Shown one piece after another: positions 41,892 through 61,970 of a stretch of DNA of 64,000 nucleotides (its first letter is position 1; each line of letters begins with the position of its first letter). The notes beneath the pieces were generated by a model. It was not told where the DNA came from. It did not search any database and worked only from the letters and a program-made list of their open reading frames with translations. Made by a program: the position numbers and the translations under genes. Source of the DNA: Tubiluchus corallicola (taxonomy: Eukaryota > Animalia > Priapulida). The stretch spans positions 62,001 to 126,000 of the forward strand of contig JAQGDQ010000088.1 in assembly GCA_030141605.1 (NCBI GenBank). The letters are read 5' to 3'.

Positions 41892-44619
41892 CAGCAGTAA
41901 TTTTTGTGTTATATGTTTTAGTGTAGAATATGTTTTGTGTTTAATATAACATAGGTTTGGGTCATTCATATCTCATAGTGAAATGCAAAAATTGATAGAA
42001 TGCCACGTCTAAGTTTATGCGAGTTTTTCTGGATGGCACTATGGGACACCAGAACAGTAACTGTTGAAAACATTTGGGCCTCTTACACTTTGCTTTGTAA
42101 GCAACTTAGCAAAATAGTACATGTAAGTCAATTAGATTTGTTACCTGTGTGATGCTTACAATACATTACATTGTGACACCATTCTCTTAAATTTCTAGTT
42201 AATGGAGAATTTTTATATTGTTAACACTTTTAACAAAATTGATTTTAAAAAATATTTGTAACTTTATAATGATTTTTTAGTATATGTAAGTGTAAAAATA
42301 GTACTGCATTTCATCTGCAGATAACGGGAATTATTTTTGCATAATTTAGCTTGTGATATTTTAAAGATTTTGAGATGAAATTTTTAAAAGTAAACTTCTT
42401 ATTGATTATCTTTTCACTAATCATGATTGCATTATTGTATTTACCTGTAAAAAGTACATAATATAGTTTATCTGTACATAGCTTGTAAAAATGCAGTTTT
42501 ATGCGCTTGCAGTATTAAATGTGTATATTTTAATTATGGATTCTTGAAAGGTAGAACTTTATAATTGTGTAAATGAAATGACACTTTAAATTTTTTGTTG
42601 GTATTGATAGGCTAATGCAGACTTCTTGGGCATTTTAGTGTATTCCTATATGTAATAGGTTACTGAGTCAGTTATTGTTGTAAAACTAAATGGGGTGATA
42701 GGGATTATGAATCTCGGTAATCTAAGCTGCAATAGTGCATATTTTAAAGAAAGCAATACGCCTAGCATTCTTTTTAATAGATGCTCAGTGCATCATAATT
42801 CTAAGGATACAAGTTGGTTTCTAGTAATTTTTCCTTTTTCTCATAACTTTCTTATTTATTACCATTGTCTGGTAAATGAAGCACTGTCTTCATCCACTAA
42901 TTGGCTTAAAAAGCTGTTGTTCAGAATTCCTGGAAGTATTCAATACATTCAGATTTTATAAAGACTAGGGTACGATTATTTCATAATTTTCAATTGCTGG
43001 ATTTGCTAGCAAGTTCACTTGGGAATTACACTGCTCTTGTTTTTGTTAACTGTTCACTTTGTAGTTCTGTGAAAGTCTTACGTGGACTCATAGGAAACTC
43101 TTTAGTGAAACTTCTGGAAAAAGGGTTACCGTCAAAATGTGGCCGTCGTTAATTTCGTACTTACATCCTTTAAGGATTGTTAAATGTATCAATAATGGTA
43201 ATTTTTTCTTCTCAATTTTAAATGATAAACTTCATTGTGAAGTTGACGTTTTTACATGCCCTGCCCTTGTTAAGCACTAAGTACACAGCATGTAGTTTTT
43301 TTGTTGTTAATAGACTGTTAGCTATTTTAATGTTGTGCATTTTGTGCTTGTAAATATTATGTGGTTGTGTATATGGTAGATGAATAACTTATACATTTTG
43401 CTATAGTGAGCAATCATGGAGCTAGACTGCATACTAATGCTTTTCTGCCGGGATGTATTTTTGGTGTAGTAAGTACTGTAAATAAGAAGGGTAGCGTTAT
43501 CCGTACAAAAAAACTACAGATCAGGGATTTGTGAATCTCTATCAAATTAATTTGGTTGTGAACTTTGAATTATAAGAAATAGTTTCAAAAAGTTTGTATA
43601 AATGATGATATTCTACATTGTTCTTATTCTTTCTTAATTAAATCCTTGTATATCAAAATTTATCAGGGTTGTACTTTTGCATACAACAGTTTGCTTTCGT
43701 CTACAATAAGAATAACAGGCGACTCAATTTCTGGGGTGTTTTTTAAATGGTTGACTGTAAAATTCTATTAGTTTTTTAACATCTAAACTCTACAAAAATA
43801 GGAAACATAGAATGCATGAGCATGTGTAGTACTTTTGCAGCTTTCAAATGCATTGAACATTTACGTGAATCATGTGGATATGTTTGTCAAAGAAAAGTAG
43901 TAAAACATTAAAACACATTGCTGTAGTGTTTCTTTTTTTGATAACTGTTGTCTTAGTTGCATCTAATATTGGTTCAATTTGCTACTGCAACTTGACCACT
44001 TTTTCCACTAGAAAACGAATATGTAAGCCAAATTATCACATTTTTCTTTCTTAGGCCAAGTGAACAATACATGAATAAATAAGTAGGGAAAACATATACA
44101 TTTACAATATTTTAAGAACGCTGTTCAGTGTTTAAAAAGTTATTTTCGACGTTTTGTAATAATTATAAAGTTGACAATCACTGTTTTTCCTTACCAAGAT
44201 GGTACAAGAGCTCATACCACTAAAAAAACTGACTATTTAAGAAACCCATTTAAGACGTGTTTAAAGTTGCTATGTGACAGCTTAAACCAGCTTGCGTACA
44301 TGAGTGATGTACATTTTTTCATGGAAAATAATGTTCTGACTCGAAAACCAATAATGGCACCAAGTTGAAAAACAATTCAAGTCCAACAATTTGTGCTCCC
44401 TTGAAAAGACAACTTGAACTTGGCCATAATACATTGCAACTGATTTAGAGTTTAGCTCACTGAACGACAGGCAAAACAGAGCAGGAATCATATTTGTTCA
44501 TTTTCTTGTATATTAACCAAAATTCTCACATGCATTACAGTTGATTTAGGATTTAACTCATGCAAAACAAAGCATGAATCATGTTTGTTCTGTTTCTTGC
44601 ATATTACCAAAAATTCTCA

Positions 44620-45113
44620 TTAGCATCTAAAAAGTTTGACTGAAACTATTGGTCAAGGGACACGCTGAACTTGAGCGAAAATCTGGTTCCATCAACAAAT
44701 GCGAAATTTGTTCGAGTATATTCGTTTACAGGTTAGATTTAGATTTGGGTTTTTAGAAAATATTAATGCTGCCATCTTGAATTCAAGATGGCAAAATAGA
44801 AAAAATGACATTAATGCCACTATCTGACACCATTGTTCATTCTAGTATGTTCCTATAAAGCTTCATGACAACCAATTGCATGCCTTTTTCGAAAATGTTA
44901 TGATGGTCATCTTGAACTCAAAATGGCAGACTGAAAATCTAACAATGGTCGATTCAGAATTCACTCTAGTATATTTTTGTAAAATTTAGTGACAATCCAT
45001 TGAAAATAAGCAAAGCCTTGGCCTTTTTTCAAAAAGGTCATCCCTCCAACAACGTTGTCCAGAAAAACAGGGATTTAGATCGAGTTCTCGACCCAAAAAA
45101 GTAACTTTGTTGG
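44620..45113. repeat. Probable small non-autonomous element with palindromic subunits
   Basis: Perfect 24-bp palindrome TGCCATCTTGAATTCAAGATGGCA at 44770-44793 and a degenerate copy at ~44905; short hairpin TTGAC...GTCAA near 44636-44656. Boundaries uncertain. Confidence 0.4.
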
Positions 45114-45152
45114 TCAACATGCAACTTCATCTTGTTCAGTTTAGCACGTAAT

Positions 45153-45194
45153 TTTATTTAAGACAGGTTTTATTGATCAATGTGAGTTTTTATT
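45153..45194 (-). terminator. Cluster of candidate polyadenylation signals for the POLR3K/PIGP unit
   Basis: Three AATAAA hexamers on the minus strand (45194-45189, 45174-45169, 45158-45153) about 400 nt after the PIG-P stop; an ATTAAA also lies at 45564-45559. The AT-rich background limits certainty. Confidence 0.45.
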
Positions 45195-45585
45195 TACTAC
45201 ATAATTAAAATACCCCTTGTGCATATCAGCACACCTGCTTTGAAAAGCAAAAACGAAACAATGGCAGAGGCATGAAATTACAACCATAGTAACTGAAAAG
45301 TATACGTGAACGTGACTTGTTTACTGGCGTTCATGCTCAATATGTACCTGCTCTAACTCATTGTAAGGCACTCATTTTTTTCTGGAAGCTTGATTAACAG
45401 CTTTACTACAATCCTTGATATTTTGGTTATTAGTACATAATCAAATTATAAAATCATCATAGAGCATCTAAGTTGTCTATCCAATATTTACATACCAGTA
45501 TATTAATTAGCTCATAGTTTCATTAAACAATGTCACTGCGCTTAGAATAAATATTGCTTTTAATCATTTTACATTAAATCACACT

Positions 45586-45972
45586 TCACAAGTAAAGTTC
45601 TTTGCACACTTTACTGATATGTATATCTGATAAAGGTGGTACAGCTCCCTCGGGTAATTTTTTAATATCACTTGTTGGCACAACAGCATGTTTATCTGTT
45701 ACAGTATTTATAGAGCACAATGACAAGGTTATGAGAAAGTTAATTGCAATGAATGTCACATAAGCGAACAGAATGGCTACAAAAGATAAAACTGGAATTG
45801 CCAATGCCCAATACTTGTGGGGCCAATATGTTAAGCCGATTGCATGTAGCCAGCTTTGCGGAATGTATGCCCATACTAAATATATAGCAAGGCTCAGGTA
45901 GGAAGCAAGATAAAGAGCGAAGCCATAGATGGCTCGTTCTGGTGCAGGCAAAGGAGCATTCTCATTTGACAT
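45586..45972 (-). CDS. PIGP: Phosphatidylinositol N-acetylglucosaminyltransferase subunit P (PIG-P), intronless, 128 aa
   Basis: MSNENAPLPAPERAIYGF...YLVWAYIPQSWLHAIGLTYWPHKYWALAIP...PPLSDIHISKV matches the PIG-P hallmark motifs. First ATG is at 45972-45970 (the ORF track start at 45984 is a TTG); stop TGA 45588-45586. Confidence 0.95.
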   Translation of the reverse strand: MSNENAPLPAPERAIYGFALYLASYLSLAIYLVWAYIPQSWLHAIGLTYWPHKYWALAIPVLSFVAILFAYVTFIAINFLITLSLCSINTVTDKHAVVPTSDIKKLPEGAVPPLSDIHISKVCKELYL

Positions 45973-46007
45973 TGCAGATTCCAATTGTATTTCACTTTAG
46001 ATCTTGT

Positions 46008-46223
46008 TTATTCTCTCCATCTATAACCACATTCTGAATTGCAACACTTGTAAAATGTTGTCATTGGTTCATCCGCAGATCTGGTTTGTATTTGCATAAA
46101 GTAAGCCCGTGGATTTTCACATTTGGGACATTTCTCTTCTGTTGAATCCACATTTTCCCATGCTGCTGATCCGCCAAGTACGTCATCCACCTCTTTTAGC
46201 TTGGGGTAACTTCTATTGGTAAT
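46008..46223 (-). CDS. POLR3K: RNA polymerase III subunit RPC10/C11, coding exon 2
   Basis: Acceptor tttccAG|ATT; encodes [28 protein letters not shown]...CPKC...[16 protein letters not shown]...WRE then TAA (TFIIS-like Zn ribbon with RSADEP). Confidence 0.97.
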
Positions 46224-46794
46224 CTGGAAAGCAACAATGCTGTTCTGACTTACTCTACACAGCAAGAAACAGGAAATAGACTTACTTTAATATTAGCATG
46301 ATTAAAATTTAAGTTAATTACATGTAATTAATTATAAACTAACTACATAAAAACAAGCCTTAAGTACTGGGTAAACTTGTTTCCCAAAAAGTTTTTGCCA
46401 GAAAAATTTCCTTCCCAGAAAAAAATTACCAGAAAAGATTTTTTCACGGAATTGTCATTTCCTAGAACCGTCATTGCATAGAAAATAAAACTCACTGAAA
46501 ATATAATAAATCCTTTTTAAAAAGCAGTTAGATAAAGGATATCTGATGGTAGAAGTATCTCGCAGATCATCTACTTGATCATCAAGAGGAGAGAGTCTAT
46601 AACATCAATGAAAACAGTGGATGGCCCCTCCCTTCAGGAAGGTGTTCACAGCTGATGGTTAATTAGTTAAATGCACAATTAATTAAATTTTGATACCAAA
46701 TTTGTAATCAGGACAGGAAATGTGAAAAGTTTGAACACAGTCTGGAGATGAGCAATCAACTGTGAGGGATCAACTTTGGACTGCTCTGATCACT

Positions 46795-47160
46795 GGAAAC
46801 ACAGTGGCCTAATGGTTGTGGCATCAGCCTTGTAAGCCGAAGCTCACTGCTTTGAACAGAGGTTATCGATTTTTACATTCTTATCAAATATAAGTTTGAC
46901 AATTACAGATTTCGATAATGGTATTATGAGAATGCAATTTTGTAATTAATTCAAAATTGATTTTACTTTGTATTAAAAAACTGTTCAAATATCTTTTTAC
47001 TTGATTAACTTCCCAACCATTATTCAAGTCACAATTCATGTAATTTCCAGAAGCGTTCTGTCTATCAGTGTGAAACGCATTCCTGAACAAATATGTCCGT
47101 GCCCATTGAGGCTACTATATATTGCTACATTTGAAGTTTTTTGAGGGTAGTGTATTATAA
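46795..47160 (+). mobile_element. Possible tRNA-derived SINE remnant
   Basis: Box A-like GTGGCCTAATGG (~46804) and degenerate box B-like GCTTTGAAC (~46849) at tRNA-like spacing; no clean cloverleaf; 3' extent is a guess. Confidence 0.35.
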
Positions 47161-48299
47161 CACAGTTTAGAAAAGTGCTATTGATATATAAGGGGAAATG
47201 GGTTATAAACACCATAGTATTGACTTGGAAATTGTCAAATAGATTTCACCACCCCAATCCAACTTGGAAAATAATAACAAAATTTAATACTAGAATAATC
47301 GGTTTAATATCCAATTCTGAATCTGAAATAACTGTTTATAATTCAAGCCTATGGCTATGATACATCCCAGTGTCTAGCATACGGCTGCTGGCTTCCAGCA
47401 TTCAGCCTTCACAACAAACCATACAAGAAAGCGCCTGATGTCCAATATCTTTGTTCAATGCAGAAAAACAAAATGGATGATATCAAATTGACTTTTTAAT
47501 ACCTTATCTTTTTCACATTATTTATTCATATAATAATTTGCAGAGCTAGTCATTATAGGCTACTTGAAGAACAGATGCTGAATGCCACATGCTTAAAAAT
47601 ACGGAAATCTTCCAGCGTCTGCTAACCATAATCTTTTGTTTCATCACCCACAGACAGTATATACGTTCTTTCTCGCTTTCAGATGCCGGACGCCTCGGTG
47701 TATGACATGTTTTACATGGCTGAAATGTCAACCTCGTTTAACGCCCAAATTTTTCATGACAAAAAATGTCTATATGTGGATAGACATGTAGGTTTTTATG
47801 CACCTCGTTATAATGCCAAACTCGCTTAATGCTGCAATTTTTTGCAGTACATATAAGTAGGCGGTATAAAAAGGTTTGACTGTATTGGCTTTAAAAATGA
47901 ACCTGAACAACGGGCTTACTGGAGTGATGCAGTATGGTTTAGCAGCACCATTGAAAGGTTTAGTCAAAACTCTTAAACAATAAATAAATACATAGGGGTA
48001 ATCCAAATGGCTACATGGTGCCTGAGAATGGCCGCTCAAGCTGACTCGTTATCCCTGTGAATTGCAGAACCGCATATCGTCTCGTCATCTATATACATGT
48101 GCAGTGAGGCAGCTAACTCTATGGGCAGCCTAACTCTAACTCTATGCTTATAATGCACCCGTTGTTTCATTGGCCACATTCCACAAATCAGCAACATGCT
48201 CCAGTAACTTGCACTTATTCTTTGTTTTAACATTCCACACATAATTTCCTTTTGCTAAGATTATATTTTTTGTCATTTATTTTCACTTAGTGTTCCCCA

Positions 48300-50140
48300 T
48301 ACTTCCATATTTGTTAATAAAGTAGAAGTCACTGTTTCACAAACTAATAATCTAATTTTCATAATTGATCTCCTACTTCATTCTATCACATCAACTCATA
48401 ATTTCCCTTTTCATGTAACCAATTTTCTTACTTCTTTTTCTTATACTCATATCATAGGTTCCTTTTTCTGTAATATAACCACCGAAGTTCTTGTAATGGT
48501 CTACATTTGCAGTTCTTACTCTTTTACACATAATTTTTCACATTCTTTTCTTCATTTTTTTCGTTTACTAGGATTTAAATGTATGTGTTGCTACTTGTCC
48601 ACCCAGAAAGTAAAAAACTAATAATGGTTTTCTACGTAAAAGTGTTCAATCACAAGAAAAAACCCGTTATTAAAACAGAACATGTGTGTTAAGTAAAAAA
48701 ATAGTGTCGTTAAACGAAGACTTACTATATTTGAAGGAAAGTATTATATTAGCAAAACACACTTGTAATATGTAGGGCTTATGGGGGTCATTAGTATTTG
48801 ATGAATGGCTAATAGGAAAAATGTGTTATTTTTTTTTAAACATGGCACATTTTTTTTAATTCTTCCATTCTTCTACAGCTCTTTATTGCTTTTGTTACTA
48901 TTTCCGCTGTTCTCATACTTAGTAATTATATTATTTACATAGATTCAAGCATCTATGCTTACATCACTGTCAAAATGTACAGCACTCCTTTCACTTATTC
49001 TGCTTATTTTATCAGTACTAGAGCAACACATAATTGGTCCACACTGTACCTTGTTTTCCTGTTTCCCCAACCTTAAACTGTTTCCAACTGCTGTGACAAT
49101 TTTCACTGTCGACTGTTCATTTAACTTATATATTAAATTTAAATCATTTTCTTGTAGTTCTATTTGCCATAACTCTATCAAACAGTCTCGTAAGCCATAG
49201 CTTATCAAAACACTTCATCACATCTACAACTACAAGTTTTGCTTGTTTTTTATAAAAATTGCAAATCTCTATAAACCAATATAATACAAATAGAATATTC
49301 ATTATTATTATTCCCTTTTTACCACCACATTGACTTTCACTTAGTCCTACGTTTATTTATTTCTTTGTAATATTATTTGTTCTAGCAATTTAGAAATTTT
49401 ACTAGTTAGAAAGATTCCTTTTAAATTTTTCAAACTCATTTTTTGCACCTTTTTCTTATATATTGATTTTATTATCATCTCATTCCATTCTTCTGGTATT
49501 CTTTCTTGGCTAATGACATCATTTGACAGAATACATAAGCTAGCTACCAGATCACTTCCTGCCATCTTTAACATTTCATTTTTCCACCCTTGACTATCTA
49601 ATACTTTCCAGTTTTTGTTTTTTATAGCATCATTCATCTCTTCTCGTATTACTTGTCTTATCTGTTTGCTTTTTATAATATTTACGACTTCTATTACTTT
49701 TAACGCTTCATTAATTTCTTCTTCTAAGTAACTTTGATTTGTGTTTTGCAGCAGTTCATTTTAAAATCTAATATATTCTTTTTTCAATATGTTCTTTATC
49801 AGTTATAAACTGATTTTGAGATTTTATTCCACATCTAACTTCTTTATTGGTATGTGACTCTCTTTTTATACTTCCAGAAGACCCCACCTTTTACTGTGCC
49901 TTCTTTTTTAATGTTCTACGCAGTCTTAATAGTTTTCCTAGCTTTAGCTTCCTGTTCGCATTTCAACAGATGCTCATTAATTAGCCTTATTCTAAAGTTT
50001 AAAAAACCTTTTTTATTTTATTTAACACTCTGGCTTCTTTTGAGATATTTTCTCTTCTTCTTTATGTTTCTTGTATTACACACACTTTTCATTGCAATTA
50101 CTTTTGCACTCCACATTGAATATTTTTCTTGAAAGTCTAT
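48300..50140 (-). mobile_element. Decayed LINE ORF2, RT-containing part (downstream of the Harbinger insertion)
   Basis: Remnants GWKNEMLKMAG...IPEEWNEMIIKSIYKKK...LKNLKGIFLTSKISKLLEQII and DCLIELW...LIYKLNE...QCGPIMCC are non-LTR RT motifs; many stops and frameshifts. Confidence 0.85.
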
Positions 50141-50455
50141 GGGCCGCATGAGTAAAAATGAAGTATCTACTGAGAAGCTTAGTGCGTACATTTACTTCGA
50201 GTATAAAGTTTTTGCTATGTAGCACAAACCAAAGTTATTACTAAAGACAGAAGCTTATACCAAGCTCTTTAGTAAATACTACAAATCCTATGTGAGCGAA
50301 AAAGTTTATACTTCATTTCATATGATGAACCTTTTGTTTTTACTAAACTGCTTGCATTCTTGTAAGTGTAATGCTACGATTGTCTTCAGCATCGTCATGT
50401 GGGTCTCATCGTTTTTTAACATACAACCTGCATTTTGCAGGAAATATGTACGAAA

Positions 50456-51200
50456 ATGTCTGAAGAGGAAGACGTGGAAATGATGACCGAAGAAGACATG
50501 CAAATAGTTTTTGTCGCTTTGCTAATAGGAAGAGAAATACTCTTATCCAAAAGTCAGTTGCGCGATGTGAGGGCCAAAAAACGAAGGCATTAAAAGAATT
50601 GGCTGATGTGATTAAGAAAAACATCAGAAAAACAGTAGACTTAAAAGCTTTGACGAAAAAGGTAAACAACATGAAAAGCAAGATACGAAGCAGGTAAGTT
50701 GCCTAGAAACAAAACAAGTAGGACATTTATTTTTAATATAGTGTTGTTATCTTCAAGTCAGTTTTCGTCATCATTACCATCATTGTTATTGCTATGTCAT
50801 ACAGCATGTAAGTCTGCATGATTCTTCATAAAGTTCTTTACATTATCTTTTTAGATGTGACCTGAACAAGAACTGGAAATACAGCAATTAAACTGTATTT
50901 ACAGTTTAATACAATTACATTGTATCCCAGGTGCTATGTCTTGTAGCCAAACAATCTGGAACCAATTTCCAAGCTTCAATCAATACCAGAAACTTCAACA
51001 ACCACTGCGATACCTTCTGAGGGCCAACTAGACATGCCAGTCAGTCAGTTTCTAAGCCAGTCAGTAAACTAGCCAAAAGAAAGTTTCCACCACTTGAAAC
51101 AACAGAGACGGCAAATCTAACCAACGCTGAACTAACCTAACTGACTTGTGTTGCTAGAGCAGTTGTACTTTTATCGAGAACAAAGAAAAGCACTGTGCAC
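50456..51200 (+). pseudogene. Harbinger Myb/SANT-like DNA-binding protein (frameshifted, one probable intron)
   Basis: MSEEEDVEM...ILLSKSQLRDVRAKK / KALKELADVI...KKVNNMKSKIRS, donor AG|GTAAGT at ~50693, acceptor ttttAG at ~50853, then CDLNK/TGNTAIKL; resembles Harbinger accessory proteins. Confidence 0.65.
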
Positions 51201-51479
51201 CACAGTACCAACCACTACATCATTTTTTATGGAAGCAGTAGAAAGCACAGCATATGAGCAGCCACTACGACTACCAACTACCACTACTTAAACGACTACC
51301 ACTACCAACAGCAGCAGCAACAGCAACAATTTGTCTTTTCTTATTCTTCCTCTAGCCCTTATTTCTTTCTCTTGTGATTCACTTCTTTTCTAAAAACGCT
51401 GTTGCTGTGCCAAGAGAAAAGCTGCAATGTCGTTGGGTTTTTTTTCCCCACTTCCCTTGTCTTAACTGCAGGGTTTTGA

Positions 51480-52812
51480 ACATCATCAACATGTTTGTGT
51501 GGATGCTCTGCTAAGTCAGCATCGTTAAACTTGTGGGCACGTTGCAAAATGTCAACATCATCATTCAGTAGTTTACCGATGTTGTACAGCATAAAGTAAC
51601 ACATTATATATTTTGTAACCCATACTAACTTCAGTCACACCTTATAATCTAGCATTGGAAATCATCGTTTTACCTGACCAAACATTCTTTCAACAATGAT
51701 CTTTCATGAGAGTGATGTCAGGTGAACACAGATCGAAGCTAGTTTTTGAGGTTTTTATATGGTGCCATCAGCCTTGGACTTATCCAGTAACGCTCATAAT
51801 AATATGGCTCCAAACCTTTGCTGTTGCAGCCAAATTCCAGCTAATGATCTTCACCAAATCCTGCTGTCATGCACTGATGCTGGCCAACAAGTATCTATAC
51901 TTGTCACAACATCATCTGTGTTGACAGTCACTTGGACATTTATACTCGTTACATCTTTCTTATTAACATGCTCATCTTTGTAAACAGATGGCGTAACAAT
52001 ACGCACATGAGTACAACCAACGGCTCCTATTACATTCGGAATCGAAAATCGTTCAAGCCATTTGGCTTTCGCGTTAGCGACATCTTTATTTATTGTTGGA
52101 AACTTTATTACATCATTGCACTTTTCACAAATTTTATTTATCATTTCGTTGACTATCTTGCAAACTAGTTTAATGTAAACCTAAATCTTCTCCGACACCT
52201 ACTTGAAATCCAGGGTCTGCAGTATATGTAATAATCTGGAAAATGTTATTTAACAGTGCCAAGTAATGATAATATCACTAATAAGGTGCACTGCAAAACA
52301 TAAGTGGTAAAATATTATCATAATTGTCATCCTTATCATTGATATCATCATCATCTTCATCATCATTGTTACAGTTGTTGTCATTGTTATCATCATCATC
52401 ACCATCATCATAATTTATTTTCATCTTCATTAATTGCAGCAACAATAAAACCAAAAACAGCAAGAGTCGATGGAGCCCAAGCCTCAGAACTTACATATTT
52501 TACACAAATATATATCAATATTATATATTTATATCCATAATTTTACACATATATACACAAATACACCAACAGAATTAAAATATTATAAGCTAGCTAAGGC
52601 ACTAATTTACAAAAATCGTAAATAACTTTCGTAATTAATTTCCTAAAGTAACAAGTCCCGAAAACACCTGCATCTTTTCAAAACTTGAAAGAGCACCCCT
52701 CTTCATTCTTTAAAAGCACCTGGGAAGAAATAATCAGCCATCCACTGCACATTCTCTGGTTCGAATCTAAATAAGCTCTTAAATCGTTTTATTGCTATTT
52801 TGCATCTGTCAT
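51480..52812 (-). pseudogene. Harbinger (HARBI1-like, DDE_Tnp_4) transposase pseudogene
   Basis: FKSLFRFEPENVQWMADYF..RGALS (N-terminal part), DPGFQVGVGEDLG, then IPNVIGAVGCTHVRI...SINVQ...WPASVHDSRIW; the first catalytic Asp (GAID) reads Gly; stops present. Confidence 0.85.
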
Positions 52813-53100
52813 AATATACTTTCTGCTTTCTTGTCACACTAGGTATAACTCCCGCCATATTCTTGCACAGCAAATCCATGTTCAGAGTAGCTTCGCAAAA
52901 TCATAGTATTTACTAAGGAATGCGACTTTTTATTCATACCAATCGTACTTTGTTGTGAAGTAAAAACTAAAGTATATACTCTGGCATTAAAGGGAAGTAT
53001 CTACTATAGTTTATACTACTAATCTTCATCATATGAAATGAAATAGCTACTACGACAATCGTAATAAAAAAGCATAATCCAAATTTTATTCACACAGGCC

Positions 53101-53900
53101 TATATCTTGCTTCCATATTTCTGCTAAGCCTGCATTCTGTGTCATGGTTTTAATTTTTTCTAATTCTGTTTGTGTAATTTTCATTGGGTATTGTTTTCTA
53201 GTTCCTTGTACACCCGTGTTTATTTCATACATACTATAACTGTATTGTGAACAGAATGTCTTTCTATCACCTTTCCATTTTCACTTTCAATGCTATCCAT
53301 TCCCCTTTTTTACTTTGTCTGTTTTCATATAATTGACTGCTTCTACTTCATTTTTACTCAGCACACAATAATCTGTTACTGATTTTTCGATCCCTTGTGT
53401 GTGCATCCATAATCTTTCACATTTATCTGTTGCATTTAATAAACAGAGAATATGTTCTTCCGTTATTTTTAGTAACATTTTCCTGCCTACACTCACTTCT
53501 TTGTTACCTGGTGTTGTACATCCAACTTTATAGTTGAATTCACCAGCTATTATTATTTTCTCATTCTTTCGTTTCGCTTCGTTTATATGTTTTTCTATAT
53601 TTGAGTACATATTTTTTAACTCTGATACTTTAGTTCGGCCTTCTTGTGAGCCATATATTACTCCAAGTCTAATTTTAACTTGTCCATTATCAATTATAGA
53701 CCAAACTCCTTCATAGTGTTCTTCGGTAAATTCTTTATATTTCTAAAAGTGCTCGATGCAATTCAACTTTAAGTAATACTAGTATTCCTCCTTTCTCATT
53801 CTTTCAATTCTTAAATATTGATATACATCAAATTTAATTTTATCATTTTACTTTAGAAATTTTCTACACAACAAAATATTTCTGACTTCCACTCTTCCTG
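53101..53900 (-). mobile_element. Decayed LINE ORF2, APE endonuclease part (upstream of the Harbinger insertion)
   Basis: LGVIYGSQEG...IIIAGEFNYKVG...LLNATDKC...EKSVTDYCVLS...HSVHNTV are degenerate GDFN, (I)DY and SDH endonuclease motifs. Confidence 0.85.
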
Positions 53901-54124
53901 TTTACCTATCTTCCTATCTATCTATTTATCTTCCTATAGATTGATTACACTACCTAGCTTCTTCTTTATTCCTCGGGCATTTCAAAAAATTAATGTGAAA
54001 TTTGTATATAACTATATTATTAGCTATAAAGCACAGTGGGGGTAGGTGTCGAGCAAAACGCGTCACGTAGTACAACACCGCATTTTGCTGGAATCAAATT
54101 ATTAGTCATAGTTATTAACATTAC

Positions 54125-54235
54125 CTTTTTTGATAAATTGTGAACGTAAGGACAAGTATTGCAAGCAAACCGATAACACTTTCTTCCTTCCTCAACGGTT
54201 AAAACATTCGCACACGCGGGACAAAATAGAAGCAT
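54125..54235 (-). CDS. POLR3K: RNA polymerase III subunit RPC10/C11, coding exon 1
   Basis: ATG 54235; MLLFCPACANVLTVEEGRKCYRFACNTCPYVHNLSKK (37 codons), phase-0 donor AAG|GTAATG; joined to exon 2 it gives 108 aa across a 7901-nt intron (46224-54124). Confidence 0.97.
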
Positions 54236-54349
54236 ATCTAATTCATATAAAATAATGCATTACAATAATTGAATTATTTCAAGCTAAATCGGCTAAACCT
54301 GCAACTAAGCATTATTTATTTTTAATTATCAATAATCAACGTAATGTAA

Positions 54350-54445
54350 TATTTAGCGCACTAGCCCATGTACCGCAGTTCGCTACTACGCATGTGCTAA
54401 ACAACTGACGGTATGTGAAATACCGCAATCGCTGACTCGTCTAAG
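54350..54445 (-). promoter_or_regulatory. Candidate POLR3K proximal promoter
   Basis: Local CpG-rich patch 120-200 nt upstream of the ATG with an NRF1-like ACGCATGTGC, in otherwise very AT-rich sequence; inference only. Confidence 0.35.
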
Positions 54446-55039
54446 TTTACATTTTTCCATATTTCCTGTAACGCTCTGAAATTTGGTACCAACTTTTAAT
54501 TAATTGTAATTTGTTTATGCATTAATTAATATGAAATTACATGTAAGTGAATTAAATTTGGTGAGACACAGAAATTTAATTTTAAAAATGTTTTAACAGT
54601 AGGAAATCCCAGTGCTTTTTAACCTTTGTCAAGGTTTGGTTTGTACCATCAAGTTCAAGCCATTTATATATCTTTTTTAGTTTATTGTGTTACTACTAGT
54701 TGTAATATATCTTTTGGGTTTCTTCTGCCTTAACTGTAGGCCTGATACAGTATCTATTTTACTTGTTTATTATTATTGTAATTCAGTGTGCTAACTAATT
54801 CCTTCTTATTTCTTTGCAATAATTCACATTATTGTAATACATTCTATAGAAGTGTATTGCTGATTCAGTTAAATACTTGGCAATGGAATTGAATCTTGTT
54901 AATCATATTGTTTTTATTTTATCGTATGGATAATTTACATTTAATCAATTATTTAATTTATACTGTTATTTTAAATCATTGAAATAAACAAAGAGAACGG
55001 ACGCTGCCATCAAGGTAAACTCAGCCCAGTTTCTGACTT

Positions 55040-55477
55040 AAAAAGCAAACACAATTTTCGGGATGACAAAAAGGCACATCGTTCCTAGAAATAAAGAAAT
55101 TATAATTGAAATTATACAGTTGGTTTGGCCTCATCTAGAATACTGTATACAGCTTTGGAATCCCCATTTTCAGAAAGACATAATTGCTTATGGAAGGTGT
55201 GCAAAGGTGTATTTTACTGGCTATAATATTCGGTTGTAAAAAGCTGACATATTTAGAAAGATTATCGTATTGCAGTTTGACCACGCTTGAATGAAGAAGA
55301 CACCACACGCGGGGATCTTACTGAGTTTATGAAATTTTAACTAGAAAAGAAAACATTTTGCATGAAAAATTCTTTAATATAGTTGTTGATTCTAAAACTA
55401 GAGGATACTATAGTTGAAATTTGTTTAAAGAGCAGTCACGTCTTCACATTCGTAATTATTCATTTTGAGATCGCAGT
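55040..55477 (+). mobile_element. Decayed CR1-like LINE 3' region (left part)
   Basis: Reads IIIEIIQLVWPHLEYCIQLWNPHFQKDI...EGVQR...RGDL...LHIRNYSF, the CR1 post-RT motifs (RPHLEY...W.P, RGDL). Confidence 0.75.
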
Positions 55478-58218
55478 TGAAAAAAGTGTCAAAGAACTAA
55501 AAGTAGAATAAAAGCACAAACAATGACACGAACAATACAGAATTTAAATGAACAAAGAAGCTGCAATCCTCGAGAATTTTGTAATAGAATAAATAACTTT
55601 GCGAAAACGATAAGAAATAAAAATTGGAAATCCCAATAGAAAAACTATTTAACTACTACAAAGTACTTTATCAAGATATAATACCACAGACTATCAACGG
55701 CTTGAAAAACATGGAAAATCCCATTATGAATAGATCACTACTAAAATTGTGTGATCTTCAGATGTGTAAAACAAGAATCTCTACAAGAAGTAAAAGCACA
55801 AATAAAAAATCGCAAATGTGAAAAAAGTACTGGATTTGACAACGTCTCAGACGAAATGATAAAATCAGCATCAGATGTCTTAATCAGTCCTCTCGTAAAA
55901 CTTATGAACGTAATACCCAGAGCATTGGCACAAAACTATCTTAACCCCAATTTTCAAAAGTGGTGAGGCCTCTGACCCAAAAAAACTACTGCGACATCTC
56001 AATAATTTCATGCTTAGGAAAACTATTTAACTTAATTGTAAATGACAGAATATTTAAATACCTGGAACTAAATGATATTCTATCTAAAACTCAATTTGGC
56101 TTGAGAAAAAATTCACAAACAACTGACCCCCTACAGCTACTAAATGCTTTGGTTACACAAACAACTTCTCAGGCTGGCACATATTTGTGCTCCTGCTTCA
56201 TTGACTTTCAAACTGCATTTAACCAAATAAACCATAATCTATTATCCAAAAAGCTGGAGCTGTATGGCATTGATATTGATGCAACACAAGCAATAACGAA
56301 TATGTACCAGAAGTCAAAATGTTCTATAAAAAAGAATCTGTCTTTTCTTTATTTTTTGATGGAAAAACAGGCATACGACAATGTGATAATCTACGTCCAA
56401 CACTCTTCAACTTGTATGTAAACGATCTCCCCCAATCTCTCTCCAATAATGATGCTCCAATACTAAATGCGGTAGTAATAAAGTGCTTGCCTTATGCAGA
56501 TGATCTAGTTCCACTTAGTAGATCTGGAGAGGGCATGGCCTCCAAAAATCTATTGATGAACTTTTGCAGTATGCCACACAAAACCACCTACAGAAAAACT
56601 AAAGTAGTGGTGTTTGGAAAAAGGCCATCATCAAATGCCACCTTGCAGATGAACTCATCAGATGAACGCAGACACTAAGGAATGGAAAACATATTAAATA
56701 TCTAGGGGTGTATTTCACCAAACACAGGAATACACAACAAACATGTAGAAACAATGAGAAACCACAGCGTAAGAGCTCTCTCTAAAATAAAAACTCAACG
56801 GAAATTTCCCATTGACTACACTAATTTTCGTATTTAACACACTAATAGTCCTTATTACAATACATGGTTGTGAAATTTCAGTAAATGCTTATGTAGAAAA
56901 ACTAAATAAAATTGACAGCAATGACACTGAGAAAGTTTTATGAATATGGAATCAATCCCCATTCGAACATGTCCAAAATAAGTTCACACAATGGATGATA
57001 GGGGTAAAGAAAACAGCATCCAACATTGCCAGCAAGGCTGAACTGGGTTTATATCCTCTCCTCTTTGCAGCAGCAAAAAGATCATACAAACTTGGCTTAA
57101 CTGCCGCCCGCAAACATAGAAACACTATATTTAACACCATATTCCCGTCTTTCGATCATACAGCTCTATTCTCGCCCACATGGAAATTTATGCCAAACAA
57201 TGTACAATATGAGAATGAATCAATGACAATAAATCAGAAAGTCAAAAACCTGAACAAAATTCCGACAGTGAGATATGGAAATCTATTATTAGCGAAATTT
57301 ATAATGATGATAGGAAAAAGGGAGGCCGCAACAAGCTTTGGAAATCAAGCGTGCTTGTTATACCAAAACACCAGAACAAGAACGAACAAGATACGCAATT
57401 ATTGCACAAACTCCTCCCCTAAAAAAACATGAAATTGAAGATGAAATGGACTTTATTTATGACTGCCCACTTTTTGCTGAAAATAGAACAAATTGTGAAA
57501 ATAAACTTCACAGTTAAATTTTTTCTCTAGGAATACCACCTTCTCTCATGTGGTTGTTTAACAGTAGTGTTCAACAAGATATAATTCATTTTACAAAATA
57601 TATATTTAAAAACTTCCAAATAAGAAAAACAAAAGGCTGACACTGGCTACACCTTGTTGAACCTTTTCAATGTTAACTCAACTACTCAAGAGTTGAAATA
57701 GTTTAATATCTAGTTATAATTGTGTATTGCATAATGTATAGTTGTTAATTACTTTTAATACTGTTCTTTGTTTTTTGCATGCATAATTTTTAATACAGTT
57801 TCTTTGTTTTTTTTGTACGCTTTCCTGTTACAATTTATACATCTATGGTATCAATGCAAGAAACTTCTGGCAACATCTCCAATCCCTAGGGAAGAAGAAA
57901 TCAGCACTTTGGCAGCAGATTCTAACCACAATTATTTTCAACTCTCATTATGTTATTTTTATAATCTTTCATTTAAAAAGCTGGTACAAATACCTACTAT
58001 TTATAAGCCATTTTTCTCTTTTCATTTCTAAATTATACAATTTTCTATAACTGTAATTTTTGTCTCAGTGTACCATACCTTTATCTTTGTCTATAAAAAA
58101 ACATTACAGACAACCTATTGTAATTTTTTTAGTTTTTCGTATTTAACTTGTAATATATTGCATTGCCAAATGTACATTGTATGTATTTGTGCAAATATAA
58201 AGCTGATAACGACTGTGA
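55478..58218 (+). mobile_element. Decayed 5'-truncated LINE (RT) of a different family, nested in the CR1-like element
   Basis: KSTGFDNVSDEMIK, NYCDISIISCLGKLFN, QFGLRK, CFIDFQTAFN, GIRQCDNLRPTLFNLYVND, LPYADDLV (RT core), AELGLYPL; long AT-rich 3' UTR ending GCAAATATAAAGCTGATAACGACTGTGA. Confidence 0.88.
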
Positions 58219-60842: not shown

Positions 60843-61224
60843 CACGCACATCAGCTAGCGTCTTTCCTCAGGAAGAACAGTAAATTTTACTTACAAGAAA
60901 GCTGAAGAAGTATTTGCAAGTACATAATACAAACTTATTGCTACATTTTTTTCCCTTTTCGTGAAATGTTTTCAGTTTTTTTTAAACAAATAATCGCTTG
61001 TAATTGAGATATTCTTCTTTTATTAAAAACGCAAGTGATTTTGGCTTATCGAAACTGCGCGTATGCCAACATTAATGGTGAACTTAATAATATTATTATT
61101 ACAGTCAATGCGCCGCTCAAAATTTTTTAATCGTCAACCGTTTGATGCCGGTAGCATAGCAGCTAATCGCAAAAACGAAATACGTAATAATATATTTCGT
61201 TTTTCCCTTTTTTACACTTTGATT
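60843..61224 (-). mobile_element. Dispersed repeat, copy 3 of 3 (partial, inverted)
   Basis: Reverse complement aligns to 96-480 and 58557-58940 (e.g. TTCTTCCTGAGGAAAGA.GCTAGCTGA and TTGACTGTAATAATAATATT). Confidence 0.8.
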
Positions 61225-61970
61225 TGACGTGTCGATTTCAAAGAATTCCGCTACTGCCAATCTTAACAGCATGCAGTTTTTGCCATGTCTACCTGTTTCA
61301 AAGTCCGATTTCTTTTATTTTAGAGTTCTGCCTACCTAATGTCTACATATACGTAACGGGCATATGATAATGATGATGAACATGCAAGAAATGTAAAACG
61401 TGAACAGCAGTACAAAAAAAATAAATTTTTGAACTAGAGTAGAGCTTAGTTTTTACTCTTGAGACTTAAGCAGCTGTGTAATTAGTATAAGCATGAAGTC
61501 TAAATTACAGAATTCGGAAAACTTTGCCAAACCAGGCCTGTCGAGTTCTAAGACAACGAGTTTGTTTCGTGCTGTTAACCCAGAATTGTTTGTAAGACCG
61601 GTAAGTATGTAGGTGTCACAATATGCAGCTGTTGGGAGCAGAGCAGGATACTATTACTAGCCGAAGTAAGACAAGTGGCGTACATGGTCTAACCCAAGTA
61701 GAACGCCTCGTATATGGGCTGCCCAAGTAGGACACTAGAGACGTCACGAATTGAATCGTTAACTGTACTGGCAGCATCCGTCCTTGTTTATTTAATAAAA
61801 GCAATTGAAAATGTCAATACATGTTAGAATAATCTATTACACATCTGATAAACTAAAAGAATCTTATTCTGAGCTAATAGAACGGCCAATATTAAATTTG
61901 GCTTCGATATTAATCTTTTTCAAGTAAAATAAGTCCGCTTTTTAGATGATTCCAACATTTGCTTAAAGTA

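Follow-up and report, generated by a model that had tools for sequence, protein, structure and literature searches.

The human PYURF-PIGY mRNA is bicistronic, with PIGY as its second ORF. The Drosophila gene CG33785 we take to be POLR3K. Dicistronic housekeeping mRNAs have been catalogued in flies and algae. CG33785 is a 108-aa ORF assigned to transcription that lies before CG33786, a pair conserved to Bombyx, and CG14550 is PIG-P behind a 111-aa Pcc1-like ORF, CG42498 (PMC2276209). CG33786 is Tcs2 (YRDC) (PMC5372737). The CG14550 and CG33785 loci are annotated only as dicistronic; their ORFs overlap by 34 and 1 nt, respectively (PMC4528330 File S1), and stop-to-start distances at FlyBase dicistronic loci range from -34 to 319 nt (PMC4528330 section 6). 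In the bicistrons known to use leaky scanning (green algae, Drosophila stoned, and Snapin), short spacers join small housekeeping proteins, and the first ORF is free of internal AUGs (PMC11892635). Spliced-leader operons carry closely packed head-to-tail genes on a single primary transcript, and spliced-leader trans-splicing also occurs in calanoid copepods (leader sequence in PMC4664967 Table 1).

We present here a computational analysis of a POLR3K-PIG-P pair from the priapulid Tubiluchus corallicola, located within 64,000 nucleotides of contig JAQGDQ010000088.1 (the whole stretch analyzed, hereafter the window; Table 1). The dicistronic arrangement is known, and each of the two genes is known in it; the pairing of POLR3K with PIG-P is new. 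The pair was not found in the literature searched, most subscription papers and bioRxiv supplements lying outside that search, and the terms used gave no mention of these genes in the supplements of PMC7896298. As at FlyBase dicistronic loci, two independent conserved ORFs lie on the same strand, and their 35-nt separation falls within the FlyBase range. Like CG42498-CG14550, the pair has PIG-P second, after a first housekeeping ORF of only some 110 codons; the fly locus differs in its Pcc1 partner, its 34-nt overlap, and its cDNA support, whereas the window pair has POLR3K as partner, a gap, and no bridging RNA seen. CG33785-CG33786 shares the 108-aa ORF as first cistron but has YRDC downstream and a stop/start overlap of 1 nt. 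PYURF-PIGY likewise carries a small GPI-GlcNAc transferase subunit as second ORF, but the subunit and the partner are different, and homology is not implied. The short spacer and small housekeeping proteins recall the leaky-scanning bicistrons (PMC11892635), whose first ORFs, unlike POLR3K with its 11 undepleted internal AUGs, contain none. Close head-to-tail order is shared with spliced-leader operons (PMC4664967), and one copepod PIG-P (locus L025, below) receives a leader, but the window spacer has no good acceptor, and no leader has been seen for Tubiluchus.

Table 1. Features of the POLR3K-PIG-P locus, in window positions
Feature	Position	Strand	Description
CpG-rich promoter-like region round POLR3K exon 1	53950..54500	(-)	CpG o/e 1.41; predicted shared promoter
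POLR3K (RPC10/C11) coding exon 1	54235-54125	(-)	111 nt, 37 codons; GTAATG after; PF02150
POLR3K intron	46224..54124	(-)	7.9 kb, phase 0, GT-AG; transposon remnants inside
POLR3K coding exon 2	46223-46008	(-)	216 nt; TTTCCAG before; TAA stop 46010-46008; PF01096
7-codon ORF, PIG-P frame	45997..46020	(-)	Spans POLR3K stop, ends in spacer
AATAAA on POLR3K stop	46012-46007	(-)	Possible upstream polyadenylation signal
Spacer	46007-45973	(-)	35 nt, AUG-free, A-rich, without good splice acceptor
PIG-P	45972-45586	(-)	128 aa, intronless; covered by contigs of run X2 (presumed RNA)
Three AATAAA hexamers	45153..45194	(-)	About 390-430 nt past PIG-P stop; predicted common 3' end

The two coding exons of POLR3K encode 108 aa. 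Pfam detects a Zn_ribbon_RPB9 domain in exon 1 and a Zn_ribbon_TFIIS domain in exon 2, which identifies the gene as POLR3K/RPC10 (C11), and 91 of the 108 residues are identical in a named RPC10 (P0147). PIG-P matches positions 2-121 of the 121-position PF08510 model with 128 bits, which assigns it to that family; its full-length frame is intact and keeps 20 of 20 invariant columns. Eleven ATGs lie between the two start codons, 10 of them in exon 2. Relative to POLR3K, the PIG-P frame is +2. The original prediction, made from the letters of this stretch, described the genes correctly: every coordinate, the 35-nt gap, and the intact ORFs of 108 and 128 aa agree with our results, as do the differing frames and the TAA that the spacer contains in the PIG-P frame. 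It overlooked the AATAAA on the POLR3K stop and the 7-codon ORF straddling that stop, a form not retained in a relative (P0017, below) whose spacer shifts the frame. A stronger-looking acceptor (46256-46248, minus strand; pyrimidine fraction, 0.76) lies 31 nt before that of exon 2 and is followed by one base and then GTAAGT; its use would truncate POLR3K to about 50 codons.

Among named proteins, the nearest PIG-P comes from Priapulus caudatus (62%). In a tree of one gene, built from 41 chosen proteins and 134 columns with Priapulus as its one other scalidophoran, the window PIG-P (end branch, 0.028) forms a clade with P0017 and P0018 (100/99), which joins Priapulus (99/94). P0017 is 89% identical to the window protein, is encoded on a 1008-nt contig, and has a 13-residue N-terminal extension. 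Its residues 2-10 fit the +1 frame of the POLR3K end at 8 of 9 positions (5 of 9 at the next best place in the window), and one 19-nt spacer indel accounts for 12 of its first 14 residues. We infer from this fit that the relative has POLR3K directly upstream, with a 16-nt spacer and with PIG-P in frame +1 rather than +2. Since the gene order is kept and the frame changes, a conserved fusion is ruled out; a fusion made by readthrough or frameshifting was rejected because PIG-P lies in frame +2 with a stop in the window and in +1 in P0017. No POLR3K-PIG-P fusion occurred among 279 PIG-P proteins, and none of the 16 matches to longer PIG-P forms had a TFIIS domain. The shifted-frame POLR3K signature was found in 1 of the 279 (P0017), a signature that proteins without an N-terminal extension, including P. 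caudatus P0019, cannot display. P0018, which is 76% identical and comes from a 1967-nt contig, agrees at 9 of 14 positions, in register, with the +1 frame of the long spacer if TGA is read as Trp (best by chance, 8), a weak match to the POLR3K-end/spacer frame. P0018 also shows an apparent one-base loss near codon 6, which may be a mark of a pseudogene, an error, or an odd allele.

Farther afield, the pairing is not a general one. POLR3K was upstream of PIG-P in 0 of 54 metagenome PIG-P loci; of the 51 that include a start codon, 39 extend 300 nt or more beyond it on the upstream side. A search pattern running from the POLR3K end to the PIG-P start, which requires exact motifs and no intron, matched once in the window and in no metagenome or viral contig. 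POLR3K and PIG-P occupy separate records, unequal in length, in Paralvinella, Patiria, Callorhinchus, and Narcine; for Umbra, the longest record of each gene has the same length. No Priapulus POLR3K was among the members listed for 15 POLR3K clusters. As to the conservation of the order and of the short spacer, which the original prediction raised as a check, P0017 keeps the order, the spacer length would have changed (16 versus 35 nt), and the 54 metagenome loci lack the pair.

Elsewhere PIG-P follows other genes. The upstream partner in the 54 loci was Pcc1 in 11, Sedlin/TRAPPC2 in 11, and a zinc-finger ORF in 1; the search used four query families plus visual inspection and may have overlooked others. 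The Pcc1/LAGE3-PIG-P loci (L003-L010, L012, L013, and L034) fall into 5 groups at 90%, with spacers of -14 to 89 nt. The Sedlin-PIG-P loci (L016, L017, L019, L020, L022, L024, and L026-L030), which probably belong to copepods, form 9 groups with spacers of 3-112 nt; the Sedlin ORF has 140 codons with 5-7 internal Met and is followed by an intron-free PIG-P. No description of this pairing was found in the literature searched. At the zinc-finger locus, L023, a C2H2 ORF lies 22 nt upstream, and the spacer contains a TTGCAG acceptor scoring 0.59. All 23 partnered PIG-P ORFs are intron-free, and none of the 20 interrupted ones, 12 of which have at least 300 nt upstream, has a detected partner, an association confounded by kinship and by RNA contigs. 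The remaining loci comprise 6 that are intron-free with no detected partner, 2 that are cut, and 3 that lack a start. Contig L017 begins with the calanoid copepod spliced leader (1-25) and carries both Sedlin and PIG-P; further leader matches occur at L022:1-5 and L025:1-16. L025 is a PIG-P-only contig related to L023, with the leader 2 nt before the PIG-P ATG, and together they suggest a possible copepod operon of the zinc-finger ORF and PIG-P. Copepods thus appear, at the level of contigs rather than molecules, to have both a two-ORF PIG-P message and a trans-spliced one. Two gene models (P0366 and P0369) weld Pcc1 sequence to PIG-P. The original prediction proposed that the linkage couples Pol III with GPI-anchor biogenesis; we rejected a specific coupling, because the upstream partner of PIG-P changes between animals. 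That it has four different partners points away from a special Pol III-GPI link and towards a borrowed housekeeping promoter.

In animals with gene-body methylation, unmethylated promoters retain CpG. The bin at 54001-54500 has the highest observed/expected CpG (o/e) of 128 bins in the window (1.47), and the POLR3K exon 1 region exceeds 99.4% of sliding windows. The ratio falls to 0.19 over the last 577 nt of the intron and is 0.48 in exon 2 and 0.40 in PIG-P. This profile, though indirect, points to a single promoter at POLR3K exon 1, and we consider it probable that POLR3K and PIG-P share a promoter and primary transcript. The shared transcript originally proposed is thus made likely by the order in P0017, the CpG peak, and the dicistronic families of Drosophila, though no contig bridges the two genes. 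In run X2, presumably RNA of a relative about 94% alike, contigs cover exon 2 (46224-46041), PIG-P (45865-45669 and 45652-45538), and the PIG-P 3' UTR; 46040-45866 and exon 1 are uncovered, and such a hole proves nothing either way. With no X2 contig across the spacer, a shared POLR3K-PIG-P mRNA is something we infer rather than observe. The start of a single X2 contig coincides with the exon 2 acceptor (46224), as would be expected at a splice fork. One X2 contig extends to 45409 and is followed by 89 unlike letters. All 8 listed X2 differences in POLR3K exon 2 are synonymous, as are 4 of the 9 in PIG-P. A contig of a second run, X1, starts at 46005, 2 nt into the spacer, and may mark a variant there. 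Five of the six letters of the AATAAA on the POLR3K stop are dictated by Glu and TAA; a count of the downstream element (U content) did not rank this hexamer below 2 of the 3 distal signals, and it could terminate POLR3K mRNAs within the spacer.

The best explanation of the whole, to which we assign a probability of about 0.5, is a common promoter, a two-protein mRNA, and synthesis of PIG-P by reinitiation. One promoter at POLR3K exon 1 would give rise to a spliced mRNA carrying POLR3K and PIG-P, and ribosomes that finish POLR3K would restart across the short, AUG-free, unstructured spacer to make PIG-P, for which a low yield may suffice. The arrangement probably originated when a small housekeeping gene acquired an intron-free PIG-P copy within its 3' UTR; PIG-P would borrow a ubiquitous promoter, and no functional connection of Pol III with GPI synthesis is implied. 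Translation of the mature mRNA into both POLR3K and PIG-P is somewhat favored, and post-termination reinitiation as the route to PIG-P is overall a plausible candidate at rather less than even odds.

The original prediction held that the AUGs within POLR3K argue against plain leaky scanning, and the counts support it: 2 of the 11 internal ATGs are in frame and 9 are out of frame, compared with 9.4 expected from synonymous shuffles (P = 0.51). Five intron-free Sedlin ORFs and one Pcc1 ORF likewise show no purge of AUGs. Plain leaky scanning was rejected because AUGs between the two starts are not depleted, which sets POLR3K apart from leaky-scanning loci. With G at -3 and C at +4, the POLR3K start codon sits in a context of middling strength. 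In the TURBS of caliciviruses, UGGGA is placed some 40-80 nt before the stop-restart site. Reinitiation of that type was also rejected, as the sole UGGGA lies 150 nt before the POLR3K stop and encodes Trp-Glu. The 201 nt round the spacer fold no better than shuffled sequence (z, +1.64; 194 of 200 shuffles as good). Reinitiation declines with upstream ORF length (PMC2276209), so the 108 codons of POLR3K are a cost for the reinitiation reading.

Operon-style processing, in which the primary transcript is cleaved at the AATAAA on the stop and PIG-P is freed by spliced-leader trans-splicing or by a late acceptor in exon 2, is unlikely. That AATAAA is followed by CA about 19 nt further, a fair CAG acceptor is present at 46035-46034 (pyrimidine fraction, 0.53), and the copepod loci offer parallels in the leader before PIG-P at L025 (a sign that trans-splicing can cope with closely spaced genes), the TTGCAG in the 22-nt spacer of its relative L023, and an AATAAA in the spacer of L017. 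However, the spacer AGs, correctly described in the original prediction as lacking a pyrimidine tract, have pyrimidine fractions of just 0.18 and 0.29, compared with 0.65 at the true acceptor, and rank lowest and joint second lowest of the 27 AGs listed; the spacer thus has no pyrimidine-rich acceptor between the poly(A) site and the AUG, as a spliced-leader operon would. The 19 nt absent from P0017 would include the CA as well as one AG, and on the most parsimonious reading of P0017 the second AG would be gone too. The X2 contig ends give no pointer to the 46034 acceptor, and no paper on priapulid spliced leaders was found in the portions of the literature searched. Slightly more doubtful is a pair of head-to-tail transcription units, with a weak promoter for PIG-P located within exon 2 of POLR3K or late in the intron. 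Separate units would remove the problem of 11 upstream AUGs and would accord with the AATAAA on the POLR3K stop, and 114 of 159 FlyBase dicistronic loci have alternative monocistronic transcripts (PMC4528330 section 6), often arising from a downstream promoter or an upstream poly(A) site (PMC4528330). Against them, the DNA preceding exon 2 is within the CpG-poorest 1.5% of the window, and a start within exon 2 must fall in its last 45 nt, or else the internal AUGs at 46032 and 46020 remain upstream.

Slightly less likely again is a dicistronic mRNA whose ribosomes arrive at PIG-P either stepwise, by leaky scanning plus restarts behind short out-of-frame ORFs, or by entering internally at the A-rich spacer. 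The ORFs opened by most internal AUGs run for 1-41 codons and all close before the PIG-P AUG, and the middling POLR3K context and the unstructured region would suit these routes. Against them stand the undepleted AUGs, the sharp loss of downstream output caused by one added AUG in algae (PMC11892635), and an Rfam scan of 44000-56000 that matched no element. It is very improbable that the POLR3K 3' UTR harbors an untranslated PIG-P retrocopy, with a conventional PIG-P elsewhere. The window gene lacks the intron found near codon 27 in many animals, 5 of the 9 listed X2 differences in it alter a residue, and P0018 looks frameshifted, but the frame is intact in both the window and P0017 with all 20 invariant columns present, its end branch is the 0.028 given above, and run X1 shows just one contig's depth (13) on PIG-P, at 85% likeness. 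A shared POLR3K-PIG-P mRNA would add a scalidophoran branch to the dicistronic housekeeping mRNAs.

More broadly, the cistrons of dicistronic housekeeping messages change partners, and PIG-P may be a roving, intron-free second cistron of moulting animals, its upstream neighbor being Pcc1, Sedlin, a zinc-finger gene, or POLR3K depending on the lineage; it would be made by reinitiation after long AUG-rich ORFs and could have been paired with POLR3K by a reciprocal exchange of cistrons. We regard this extended scheme as speculative and doubtful. If true, it would entail reinitiation after long AUG-rich ORFs, which was not found demonstrated for cellular animal mRNAs in the literature consulted. 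Flies pair POLR3K with YRDC and Pcc1 with PIG-P, so POLR3K-PIG-P could be the product of such an exchange, which would in turn predict a Pcc1-YRDC message, of two t6A genes, in the same genome. Because POLR3K retains 11 AUGs, this locus, with the Sedlin-PIG-P loci, offers a naturally occurring case for testing how the second protein arises without leaky scanning; the route taken when leaky scanning is closed is a question left open by FlyBase. For annotation, the locus is a warning that PIG-P can hide in 3' UTRs.

The window is gene-sparse, with only an OATP gene and transposon remnants besides the pair (70 of 155 long frames scanned). Given this sparseness and the 7.9-kb POLR3K intron, the 35-nt spacing does not reflect chance crowding. 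The intron contains broken pieces of a DDE_Tnp_4 transposase and a LINE endonuclease (51854-52180 and 53296-53742, minus strand), and a broken reverse transcriptase piece lies upstream of POLR3K (55945-56675, plus strand). Two other bins are CpG-rich, 61001-61500 (o/e, 1.40) and 1-500 (1.24), with no gene found near either; the former may be another promoter. The OATP/SLCO transporter gene (19576-41888, plus strand) is multi-exon and converges on PIG-P from about 3.7 kb away.
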